The position numbers and the translations under genes are program-made. A stretch of 64,000 nt of DNA from Escherichia coli. Its GTDB lineage: Bacteria > Pseudomonadota > Gammaproteobacteria > Enterobacterales > Enterobacteriaceae. The notes beneath the pieces were generated by a model that did no database searches, had not been told where the DNA came from, and saw only the letters and a program-made list of their open reading frames with translations. Below are positions 13,501-42,791 of this stretch, in pieces (within the stretch, counting starts at the first letter, position 1; each line of letters starts with the position of its first letter). The stretch lies in assembly GCF_003334405.1 (NCBI RefSeq), contig NZ_QOWM01000002.1, one strand, 5' to 3'.

Positions 13501-14598
13501 ATGAAAGGACGTTGGGTAAAGTACCTTCTTATGGGCACGGTTGTGGCAATGCTTGCCGCCTGCTCTTCCAAACCAACCGATCGCGGACAGCAATATAAAG
13601 ACGGGAAATTTACCCAGCCTTTCTCTCTGGTGAACCAGCCAGATGCCGTTGGCGCGCCGATTAACGCCGGTGATTTTGCCGAGCAAATTAACCATATCCG
13701 TAATTCGTCACCGCGTCTGTATGGCAACCAGAGTAATGTTTATAACGCGGTGCAAGAGTGGCTGCGCGCAGGCGGTGATACCCGCAATATGCGCCAGTTC
13801 GGCATTGATGCCTGGCAGATGGAAGGTGCCGACAACTATGGTAACGTGCAGTTTACCGGTTATTACACGCCGGTAATTCAGGCGCGCCATACCCGCCAGG
13901 GCGAGTTCCAGTATCCTATTTACCGTATGCCGCCAAAACGTGGTCGTCTGCCGTCTCGTGCGGAGATCTACGCGGGGGCATTGAGTGATAAATATATTCT
14001 CGCTTACAGTAACTCCCTGATGGATAACTTCATTATGGATGTGCAGGGTAGTGGGTATATCGACTTTGGTGATGGCAGTCCGCTTAACTTTTTCAGCTAT
14101 GCAGGGAAAAACGGTCATGCCTATCGCAGCATTGGTAAGGTGCTGATCGACCGTGGCGAAGTGAAAAAAGAAGATATGTCGATGCAGGCGATTCGTCACT
14201 GGGGCGAAACACACAGTGAAGCCGAGGTTCGCGAGCTGCTGGAACAGAACCCGTCTTTCGTCTTCTTTAAACCGCAATCTTTTGCTCCGGTGAAAGGGGC
14301 AAGTGCGGTGCCGCTGGTTGGTCGCGCGTCAGTTGCCTCTGATCGTTCCATTATTCCGCCAGGTACTACCTTGCTGGCAGAAGTGCCGTTGCTGGATAAT
14401 AACGGCAAATTTAATGGTCAGTACGAACTGCGTCTGATGGTGGCGCTGGATGTCGGTGGTGCAATCAAAGGCCAACACTTCGATATCTATCAAGGGATCG
14501 GGCCGGAAGCCGGACACCGCGCAGGTTGGTACAACCACTATGGACGTGTCTGGGTGCTGAAAACCGCCCCGGGCGCAGGTAACGTCTTTAGCGGCTGA
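13501..14598 (+). CDS. mltA: Membrane-bound lytic murein transglycosylase A (lipoprotein)
   Basis: ORF 13072..14598. Start placed at MKGRWVKYLLMGTVVAMLAACSS, which has a lipobox (LAAC) and gives 365 aa. Confidence 0.9.
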   Translation: MKGRWVKYLLMGTVVAMLAACSSKPTDRGQQYKDGKFTQPFSLVNQPDAVGAPINAGDFAEQINHIRNSSPRLYGNQSNVYNAVQEWLRAGGDTRNMRQFGIDAWQMEGADNYGNVQFTGYYTPVIQARHTRQGEFQYPIYRMPPKRGRLPSRAEIYAGALSDKYILAYSNSLMDNFIMDVQGSGYIDFGDGSPLNFFSYAGKNGHAYRSIGKVLIDRGEVKKEDMSMQAIRHWGETHSEAEVRELLEQNPSFVFFKPQSFAPVKGASAVPLVGRASVASDRSIIPPGTTLLAEVPLLDNNGKFNGQYELRLMVALDVGGAIKGQHFDIYQGIGPEAGHRAGWYNHYGRVWVLKTAPGAGNVFSG

Positions 14599-14633
14599 TG
14601 TGATATTCTGTATGCCGTTTTTACGGATATGAC

Positions 14634-14816
14634 AGGGTGAGGGGTAACCTCACATCCTGATTATTGACTAAGTGCGCGTTGTTCATGCCGGATGCGGCGT
14701 GAACGCCTTATCCGGCCTACAAATCATGCAAATCCAAAATATTGCAGGAGTTATGTAGGCCTGATAAGCGTAGCGCATCAGGCATTTATGCGTTTAGGGT
14801 GAGGGATAACCTCGCC
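14634..14816. repeat. BIME: two inverted REP elements flanked by 21-bp direct repeats
   Basis: REP gccggatgcggcgtgaacgccttatccggcctac (14688..14720) and inverted REP gtaggcctgataagcgtagcgcatcaggc (14755..14783). Flanking repeats agggtgaggggtaacctcaca (14634..14654) and agggtgagggataacctcgcc (14796..14816). Confidence 0.7.
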
Positions 14817-14836
14817 CTTTTTAATTCTGAGGTGCT

Positions 14837-15643
14837 ATGTCTGTGGTAATTAGTGATGCATGGCGTCAGCGTTTTGGTGGCACAGCGCGTCTGTATGGTG
14901 AAAAAGCGTTGCAACTGTTTGCTGACGCGCATATTTGTGTGGTTGGTATCGGTGGTGTCGGTTCCTGGGCGGCGGAAGCGCTGGCGCGCACGGGGATTGG
15001 CGCAATCACGCTTATCGATATGGATGATGTGTGCGTCACCAATACCAATCGGCAAATTCATGCCCTGCGCGATAACGTTGGGCTGGCAAAAGCGGAAGTT
15101 ATGGCGGAGCGTATTCGCCAGATTAACCCGGAGTGCCGTGTAACGGTGGTGGATGATTTCGTGACGCCGGATAACGTAGCGCAGTATATGAGCGTGGGTT
15201 ATTCGTACGTGATTGATGCCATTGATAGTGTACGGCCCAAAGCGGCGCTGATTGCTTATTGTCGGCGCAATAAAATCCCACTGGTCACAACCGGTGGCGC
15301 GGGTGGGCAGATTGATCCGACGCAGATTCAGGTTACCGATCTGGCGAAAACGATTCAGGACCCGCTGGCGGCGAAGTTGCGCGAGCGCCTGAAAAGCGAT
15401 TTTGGCGTAGTGAAAAACAGTAAAGGTAAGCTCGGCGTGGATTGCGTGTTTTCTACTGAAGCACTGGTGTACCCGCAGTCAGACGGTACGGTGTGTGCGA
15501 TGAAAGCCACGGCAGAAGGGCCGAAGCGGATGGATTGTGCATCTGGATTTGGCGCGGCAACGATGGTGACCGCCACCTTTGGGTTTGTTGCGGTTTCTCA
15601 TGCGCTGAAGAAGATGATGGCGAAAGCGGCGCGTCAGGGTTAA
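14837..15643 (+). CDS. tcdA: tRNA threonylcarbamoyladenosine dehydratase (ThiF/MoeB-like E1 fold)
   Basis: 268-aa ORF with nucleotide-binding motif VVGIGGVGSWAAEALAR. Context is next to csdE/csdA. Confidence 0.88.
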   Translation: MSVVISDAWRQRFGGTARLYGEKALQLFADAHICVVGIGGVGSWAAEALARTGIGAITLIDMDDVCVTNTNRQIHALRDNVGLAKAEVMAERIRQINPECRVTVVDDFVTPDNVAQYMSVGYSYVIDAIDSVRPKAALIAYCRRNKIPLVTTGGAGGQIDPTQIQVTDLAKTIQDPLAAKLRERLKSDFGVVKNSKGKLGVDCVFSTEALVYPQSDGTVCAMKATAEGPKRMDCASGFGAATMVTATFGFVAVSHALKKMMAKAARQG

Positions 15644-42757: not shown

Positions 42758-42791
42758 GTAGGCCGGATAAGGCGTTAACGCCGCATCCGGC
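42758..42791. repeat. REP element between convergent gudD and barA
   Basis: gtaggccggataaggcgttaacgccgcatccggc is the reverse complement of a canonical REP. Confidence 0.6.

Follow-up and report, generated by a model that had tools for sequence, protein, structure and literature searches.

The BIME-1 copy in the mltA-tcdA spacer of Escherichia coli was probably inserted into the mltA terminator hairpin in an ancestor within Escherichia, with duplication of the whole hairpin. The initial annotation had suggested that the direct repeats around this REP pair could be a footprint, and they do read as one, here of insertion, with a single copy of the repeated motif at sites that lack the element. 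Within the window (the 64-kb stretch of DNA that was analyzed), mltA occupies positions 13501 to 14598 (1,098 nt; stop codon TGA at 14596 to 14598) and is the 3' gene of the upstream transcription unit. The downstream gene, tcdA, occupies 14837 to 15643, and both genes lie on the plus strand, as does every feature described below. The mltA coding sequence was taken from the open reading frame list and the RefSeq annotation of genomes identical over the query; for tcdA, the open reading frame and RefSeq annotation were joined by a protein search that names the product TcdA. The spacer between the two genes is 238 bp long, and the BIME-1 copy within it is extragenic and at the 3' end of a transcription unit, as is characteristic of this element class. 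The spacer with its BIME-1 copy is common to K-12, a repeat feature for it is absent from the RefSeq MG1655 feature table, and a promoter scan of positions 14300 to 15100 detected none.

The two direct repeats, AGGGTGAGGGGTAACCTCACA (14634 to 14654) and AGGGTGAGGGATAACCTCGCC (14796 to 14816), have 3 mismatches in 21 positions, and their starts are separated by 162 bp. This is the near identity, 18 of 21 positions, that had been noticed at first reading, and these two were the only matches in the 64-kb window: no third match to the 21-mer was found there with up to 3 mismatches, and 100 shuffles gave an expectation of 0. Strict repeat blocks at 14634 to 14653 and 14796 to 14815 match at 18 of 20 positions, and when an AT bulge is allowed the repeat extends to 14634 to 14658 versus 14796 to 14818.

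Both copies fold (left, −14.7 kcal/mol; right, −17.2 kcal/mol), consistent with the earlier description of the flanks as small hairpins. The right copy, AGGGTGAGG-GATAA-CCTCGCCCT then TTTT (14796 to 14822), was delimited by a terminator scan, by RNA folding, and by a layout that is the same as that of the hairpin in empty alleles. It forms a G+C-rich 9-bp stem with a 5-nt loop, then TTTTT (z = −4.2 for the RNA fold), was called terminator-like by the consensus scan, and combines a hairpin with a T-run in the manner of an intrinsic terminator; the single copy in empty alleles shares this stem, loop, and T-run. The left copy, AGGGTGAGG-GGTAA-CCTCAC(AT)CCT (14634 to 14658; strict block 14634 to 14653), was defined by the repeat search, by RNA folding, and by its single counterpart in empty alleles and in Salmonella. 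Its stem is the same except for a 2-nt AT bulge, but the hairpin is followed by GATTATTGAC with no T-run, which sets it apart from an intrinsic terminator, and it should not terminate transcription alone. The right copy is the working form of the mltA intrinsic terminator, and the 21-bp repeats are host sequence, a duplicated mltA terminator hairpin that lies outside the element proper. The suggestion in the initial annotation of a composite element with terminal repeats was accordingly abandoned: the repeats are a duplicated host hairpin, and the element ends are different, conserved inverted-repeat motifs.

The element between the hairpins is BIME-1 (also RIP or RIB), consisting of a left motif, a Y REP, an L linker, a Z1 REP, and a truncated right motif. 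The earlier proposal of a defined BIME subtype was therefore correct, the combination of Y REP, L linker, and Z1 REP identifying that subtype as BIME-1. Elements of this class contain Y and Z1 REPs separated by a long L linker that often carries an IHF site (PMC3333891), are found at the 3' ends of E. coli transcription units (Gilson 1991, Bachellier 1994, Boccard & Prentki 1993, and Oppenheim 1993, as summarised in PMC3333891), and have been stated to occur as single copies (PMC3333891).

The outer left motif of the window copy, CTGATTATTGACTAAGTGCGCGTTGTTCAT (14657 to 14686; family consensus CAGATTGCTGACAAAGTGCGCtTTGTTCa), was recognized by its recurrence in E. coli and by alignment with other BIME-1 left ends, and it has mismatches to the family end at 4 of 21 positions. 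Because this motif overlaps the end of the hairpin by about 2 nt, the left junction is ambiguous. The Y-type REP, or palindromic unit (14687 to 14720), contains an internal inverted repeat, matches the Y sequence of other BIME-1 copies exactly, and is oriented so that it ends in CCTAC (14716 to 14720). The L linker (14721 to 14754) was identified through a match to Rfam family RF02751 (ES036/CssrF; 46.5 bits versus a gathering score of 37.6, positions 14720 to 14762), a match at 15 of 17 positions (2 mismatches) to the L core AATTCAATATATTGCAG, and an IHF pattern check. The last of these placed an IHF-consensus-like site, ATCCAAAATATTG, at 14732 to 14744 within the linker; as a pattern only, this candidate core matches WATCAANNNNTTR at 11 of 13 positions (2 mismatches), versus 12 of 13 for the family consensus. 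The second REP, GTAGGCCTGATAAGCGTAGCGCATCAGGC (14755 to 14783), which we take to be the type named Z1, shows inverted repeats, is in the 5' GTAG orientation, and matches the second REP in other BIME-1 copies exactly; the same REP was present at that position in all BIME-1 copies examined. Its tag, GTAGG (14755 to 14759), is inverted relative to the CCTAC of the Y REP, and the REP arms at 14687 to 14720 and 14755 to 14783 agree with the two inverted REPs first annotated.

Beyond the second REP, the outer right motif ATTTATGCGTTT is reduced to a 12-nt tail (14784 to 14795) that breaks off after GCGTTT and is without about 13 nt (GTCATCAGTCTCA) of the right-end consensus GCAaTTTTGCGTTTGTCATCAGTCTCA. 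This truncation is shared by E. coli E69 and Escherichia sp. MOD1-EC7003 and is therefore old. The window copy is like other BIME-1 elements in its inverted Y and Z1 REPs, its L linker, its outer motifs on both sides, and its position directly after a gene, but it differs from the family in a candidate IHF core with a second mismatch to the consensus and in a shortened right motif. A further difference is that the element plus one hairpin has been tandemly amplified at mltA-tcdA in another Escherichia lineage, and also at tkt. Other Rfam matches, including naRNA4 fragments on the REPs and mir-76, were below the gathering score and were discarded as REP cross-matches or chance.

Occupied and empty sites were compared by searching a 501-nt query across the spacer in all 5,426 complete E. 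coli genomes. The long allele, at full query length, was found in 2,752 of these genomes, and in the remaining 2,674 the flanks were exactly 162 bp closer. When three short alleles (ST131, O111:NM, and ST648) were aligned with two long alleles, all three contained exactly one hairpin and then a T-run, AGGGTGAGGG[G/A]TAACCTC[A/G]CCCTTTTTAATTC, indicating that the 162 bp represents one hairpin copy plus the element. This hairpin and T-run, the terminator of the short allele, lie 35 nt downstream of the mltA stop codon. Two Salmonella enterica genomes, found via the TcdA protein, also have mltA and tcdA adjacent with no BIME, and both carry a single homologous hairpin with a T-run, GGGGTGAGGAATAACCTC[A/G]CCTTTTTT, just upstream of tcdA. 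Since a single hairpin without a BIME is present in both Salmonella and the short alleles, the single hairpin is ancestral and the bracketed form is derived. The empty-site comparison proposed with the initial annotation thus gave a single motif copy at sites without the REP pair, both in the three short alleles and in Salmonella. In a relative with TcdA at 97% identity, the contig was too short and a different REP lay upstream, and that genome was uninformative on the empty site.

Specificity for the locus was assessed with a 34-mer from the short allele that spans the single hairpin and its T-run. This query had 8,202 occurrences across the 5,426 E. coli genomes (minimum 1, median 2, and maximum 4 per genome), a total close to one copy per short-allele genome plus two per long-allele genome. 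Counts of 1 to 2 in most genomes show that the motif belongs to the mltA-tcdA locus and is no general REP linker. It had been foreseen that the 21-mer might prove to be a common linker next to REPs, which would have undone its reading as a footprint; the genome-wide median of 2 shows otherwise.

The 162-bp unit was observed at mltA-tcdA in copy numbers of 0, 1, and at least 5. The highest number was in Escherichia sp. MOD1-EC7003, where at least 5 tandem units are present, the internal hairpins are all left-type, and the final hairpin is right-type and the sole keeper of the T-run. The presence of two hairpin copies would make the 162-bp unit gainable and losable via repeat recombination. In E. 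coli, both flank haplotypes carry long alleles and short alleles, so the polymorphism has been reshuffled by recombination or by repeated excision, and some short alleles may be secondary. A single crossover of the present long allele would retain the AT bulge, and the ST131-type short allele (CAC-CCT-TTTT) is not derivable in this way; at least the ST131-type site therefore looks as if it was never occupied.

Comparison with other loci defined the ends of the element. The 31 nt to the left of the first REP, which have a median of 4 occurrences per E. coli genome, are the conserved BIME-1 outer motif, and the idea that the insert had been copied from a donor with a unique flank was rejected for this reason. 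The left motif, Y REP, L linker, Z1 REP, and right motif (GTTTTGCGTTTGCCATCAGTCTCA) were found together at five other loci (yqjF-yqjG, mscK-rsmS, downstream of mngB, and two alleles downstream of tkt), and each of these copies lies between direct duplicates of its own locus-specific hairpin. A scan for the L core in one genome per species yielded 78 loci, from Escherichia and Pseudocitrobacter. Element length was 152 to 154 bp in the 34 copies with both end motifs. The terminal inverted repeats of the family, CAGATTGCTGACAAA and TTTGTCATCAGTCTCA, pair at 12 of 15 positions, and the right one is deleted in the window copy.

For a test of duplication across the family, orthologous loci were collapsed to 24 independent complete BIME-1 sites in Escherichia and Pseudocitrobacter, and the 45 nt outside the left end were locally aligned to the 45 nt outside the right end. 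Scores of 10 or more were obtained at 18 of the 24 loci, compared to 20 of 552 mismatched left/right flank pairs (3.6%). In a slightly stricter set, 17 of 23 loci had repeats, which were 13 to 30 nt long; nearly all of the 17 pairs abut the element ends within about 3 nt, and about 13 of 17 repeats fold at −9 to −19 kcal/mol. A T-rich tail lies to the right of the repeat in 14 of 17, many with an A-rich head before it, and on the basis of these tails and heads the repeats look like bidirectional terminators. A hand count at loci with clear duplication gave about 6 with only a right T-run, 2 with only a left A-run, and 9 with both, numbers too small for a claim about orientation.

In the cases that were read closely, the duplicated stretch is the palindrome plus 0 to 3 closing A/T pairs and is symmetric about the dyad, as with AAGGGCCGCGAAAGCGGCCCTT at tkt and AAACCTCGCATCGCGAGGTTT at a further BIME-1 locus (L032). 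Perfect duplications of 16 to 23 nt were present at several Pseudocitrobacter loci. Among copies that are truncated on one side, 6 of 9 and 5 of 8 still have a hairpin next to the end that remains. At the 6 exceptions among the 24 loci, there was no clear duplication or one of only 7 to 8 nt (ATGCTAT in L026 and L034), and the targets are not hairpins. Empty sites at other loci resemble those at mltA-tcdA. At yqjF-yqjG, 78 of 5,426 E. coli genomes have the element, and each of the two empty alleles for which the sequence was obtained contains one hairpin, AAAAAACGAGGAGGAAGCTCCTCGTTTTTG; at tkt, alleles with 0, 1, and 2 tandem copies were found, and the empty site is a single hairpin. Insertion was accompanied by duplication, the duplicated unit is the target palindrome, which varies in length, and the element ends are sharp.

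The two copies of the hairpin have also diverged unevenly. Across loci, 13 of 89 unpaired positions differ between copies, compared with 13 of 272 in stems, and two stem pairs changed on both sides. The lower frequency of differences in stems, together with the paired changes, indicates that both copies tend to stay hairpins, through either selection or palindrome-templated correction.

These observations suggest that the duplication is a target-site duplication with a length set by the hairpin rather than by a fixed ruler. Read on either strand, the junction runs from the hairpin through T(0-3) to the element 5' end. In the mechanism that we propose, each of the two DNA strands would be linked to the element at one of the opposite bases of the hairpin, or of an extruded cruciform, and filling in of the single-stranded, hairpin-length gaps would then produce two hairpin copies. 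On each strand, a target 3'-OH just 3' of the hairpin would be joined to the 5' end of the element; the opposite polarity is also compatible with the sequence. At mltA-tcdA itself, the original junctions are blurred by truncation of the right motif and by 2 differences in 20 positions, as well as a 2-nt indel, between the copies. It is conceivable, and we put it forward tentatively, that BIME-1, at about 153 bp, is a genuinely mobile element that undergoes structure-directed integration at both bases of a terminator hairpin or cruciform, with a target duplication of palindrome length. To our knowledge, hairpin-length duplication is otherwise known only from CRISPR repeat duplication and is undescribed for REP or BIME sequences or for Y1/HUH transposases. 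If the proposed mechanism is true, the footprints would be the first in vivo record of insertion by a REP-type element and would explain the presence of REP-type elements at gene 3' ends and within bidirectional terminators.

A replication-based origin ranks second after structure-directed insertion, and we regard it as unlikely. According to this explanation, a nascent strand would stall past the hairpin, join or switch to single-stranded BIME-1, and resume upstream, so that the hairpin would be copied twice with no staggered double-strand cleavage. A duplication length that is variable and tracks the hairpin, tandem hairpin-plus-BIME arrays suggestive of slippage-type amplification, and truncated copies that adjoin a hairpin at their one intact end are all in keeping with such an event, as is the action of RAYT, which works on single-stranded DNA only and can transfer strands (PMC3333891). 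However, only 0 to 1 nt of ambiguous overlap between the right end of the element and the pre-hairpin sequence was seen by eye, with no clear microhomology for re-priming, and strand switching would not obviously make the duplicated stretch symmetric about the dyad. The hairpin copies could instead be older than the element or unrelated to it, with short alleles produced by deletion between pre-existing repeats, but the probability of this is very low. Repeats of 20 to 23 bp that are 162 bp apart can recombine, long and short alleles exist on both E. coli flank haplotypes, and the copy number of the unit varies, all of which would be expected if deletion were the whole story. Such deletions would not place a different, locus-specific duplicate exactly at both element ends at 18 of 24 loci, and the ST131-type short allele would need a retained AT bulge if it came from one crossover. 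As an origin, deletion is ruled out by the Salmonella outgroup, with its single hairpin and no BIME, and by the rarity of the filled yqjF-yqjG allele (78 of 5,426).

Slightly harder still to credit is classical peel-and-paste by RAYT (a Y1, IS200/IS605-like enzyme) beside a hairpin without duplication, followed by the later appearance of a second hairpin selected to restore the terminator. A terminator is needed downstream of mltA, and the REPs bear the GTAG tag recognized by RAYT, a cutter and joiner of single-stranded DNA (PMC3333891). The second hairpin is, however, a sequence copy of the first and not just another hairpin, the perfect 16- to 23-nt duplications in Pseudocitrobacter favor a single event, and the complete elements yielded no intermediate form in which a left hairpin and the full element were followed by a T-run without a second hairpin. 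Finally, there is almost no chance that the 21-mer is a common linker accompanying REPs or a coincidental match, explanations that were ruled out by the shuffles, in which 0 matches are expected in the window, and by the 34-mer counts of 1 to 2 per genome in most genomes; the flanking sequences also differ at other BIME-1 loci.

RAYT cleaves single-stranded DNA at C^T (PMC3333891), and its close relatives, the IS200/IS605-type Y1 transposases, make no flanking duplications (PMC3333891, PMC2817692). Like a REPIN, the window copy has two inverted GTAG-tagged REPs around a spacer, and E. coli has a RAYT that acts on single-stranded DNA containing REPs. IS200/IS605-type transposition proceeds without target duplication, whereas BIME-1 duplicates the hairpin, here and at 18 of 24 loci. 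RAYT would be the obvious candidate enzyme, yet it would not be the simple expectation for BIME-1 insertion. At the rayT locus of K-12, the flanking REPs are all of the Y and Z2 types, and the end, outer, and L linker motifs of BIME-1 were not found there, which removed a link to RAYT via shared end motifs from consideration.

BIME-1 also resembles MITEs, in that it has a discrete length (152 to 154 bp), terminal inverted repeats, no coding capacity, presence/absence polymorphism, and a flanking direct duplication of the target. The duplications made by MITEs are short and of a fixed length set by the parent transposase, whereas the BIME-1 duplication has the length of the target palindrome and varies between 7 and 30 nt. 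We know of no parent insertion sequence with BIME-1 ends. As an analogy of outcome only, Cas1-Cas2 integration likewise duplicates a partly palindromic unit of about 20 to 30 bp around inserted DNA, through attacks at the borders on opposite strands and fill-in. Sites beside a cruciform-prone inverted repeat are also used for integration by E. coli Cas1-Cas2 in vitro, and integration at the natural site involves IHF (PMC5389526). The BIME-1 insert differs in being about 150 bp rather than 33 bp and in having many different terminators as targets, and nothing ties Cas1-Cas2 to BIME-1.

The element class is long known, and with its BIME-1 copy in a spacer shared with K-12, the mltA-tcdA locus itself is ordinary. 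The general hairpin-duplication footprint is possibly an under-described clue to how BIME-1 inserts. No statement that a duplicated terminator hairpin brackets complete BIME-1 elements was found in the accessible literature, a scope outside which the BIME papers of the 1990s fall, and an earlier description is possible. Excisions of whole BIME-1 elements were reportedly described by Bachellier et al. 1997 (Genetics 145:551), and flanking repeats may have been noticed there already.

Together, mltA-tcdA and about 20 other loci provide concrete insertion footprints, each with a terminator hairpin as the target, a duplicate of the whole hairpin, and sharp inverted-repeat ends. These footprints constrain the mechanism of BIME-1 insertion, argue against plain IS200/IS605-type single-strand peel-and-paste, and would explain the position of BIME-1 at gene 3' ends. 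Each insertion turns a terminator into a series of hairpin, REP, REP, and terminator, which alters the 3' untranslated region of the upstream gene and adds a module of variable copy number. Because the left copy at mltA-tcdA has no U-tract, mltA transcripts should read through both REPs and stop at the right copy, and in strains with the long allele mltA would gain a REP-containing 3' untranslated region.

Complete BIME-1 elements, in which an outer left motif, a Y REP, the L linker, a Z1 REP, and an outer right motif follow one another, were strikingly uniform in length, measuring 152 to 154 bp among the loci compared (L011 to L088). At the same loci, complete elements ended in terminal inverted repeats (CAGATTGCTGACAAA and TTTGTCATCAGTCTCA), giving BIME-1 an anatomy that resembles a MITE and that reaches past its two REPs.

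Amplification of the element together with its hairpin was evident at two loci. In the mltA-tcdA spacer of Escherichia sp. MOD1-EC7003 (L077, reverse strand, first ~800 nt), 162-bp units consisting of the mltA terminator hairpin plus BIME-1 were repeated in tandem at least 5 times, a count that is a lower bound because the array reaches the edge of the locus sequence. Every internal hairpin in this array had the left-type form (CACATCCT), and the T-run was retained by the final hairpin alone. Such an array contrasts with the description of BIME-1 elements as occurring in single copies (PMC3333891). The region downstream of tkt is a second locus with the module behavior seen at mltA-tcdA, as three E. 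coli strains (L091, L009, and L010) carried BIME-1 plus hairpin in 0, 1, and 2 tandem copies. In many other E. coli genomes, the gene after tkt is instead cmtB, and the terminator there also differs (L092). A second, distinct amplification route for BIME-1-like units is represented by two further loci of MOD1-EC7003 (L083 and L082), where arrays of at least 5 Y-L-Z1 units repeated with a 115-bp period and had neither hairpins nor outer motifs between units.

Copies lacking one end (L024, L028, L030, L087, and others) followed a different pattern. BIME-1 elements without the left outer motif started directly after the stop codon of a gene and had a hairpin terminator at the right end only, with no duplication, while elements without the right motif showed the reverse arrangement. 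These one-ended copies may be truncated insertions, or may reflect deletions at a later date.

Where hairpins were duplicated on both sides of BIME-1, loops diverged between the two copies about three times faster than stems. For example, in Pseudocitrobacter faecalis (L023) the stems of both copies were identical, and the 4-nt loops differed at 4 of 4 positions (ACCG versus TTAC). At yqjF-yqjG, both hairpin copies had a 5-nt loop, compared to a 4-nt loop in the empty allele. Such loop differences may stem from processing of the loop at insertion or from mutation afterwards. One stem position of the mltA terminator was A/G polymorphic (a T-A versus a T-G pair), and it varied independently in Salmonella enterica (L093 and L094), among E. 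coli short alleles, which lack BIME-1, and between the two window copies (position 14814).

Around the K-12 transposase gene rayT (yafL-rayT-lfhA, L097:455-1365), REPs were of the Y and Z2 types only, and neither the BIME-1 outer motifs nor the L motif was present. The family showing hairpin duplications therefore differs from the elements surrounding the transposase gene.

In a relative with a 97% identical TcdA (L095), a different REP (GTAGGCCTGATAAGGCGCAGCCGCCATCAGGC) lies upstream of tcdA, and no mltA terminator hairpin was recognizable there, on a contig too short to be informative. The window also contains a second Y-type REP (42758-42791, minus strand), with 1 mismatch relative to the copy at 14687-14720. 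The L linker of the window BIME-1 matched Rfam family ES036/CssrF (RF02751, 43 nt) above the gathering score, at 14720-14762. This "sRNA" family seems to represent a repeat-element linker rather than a unique gene.
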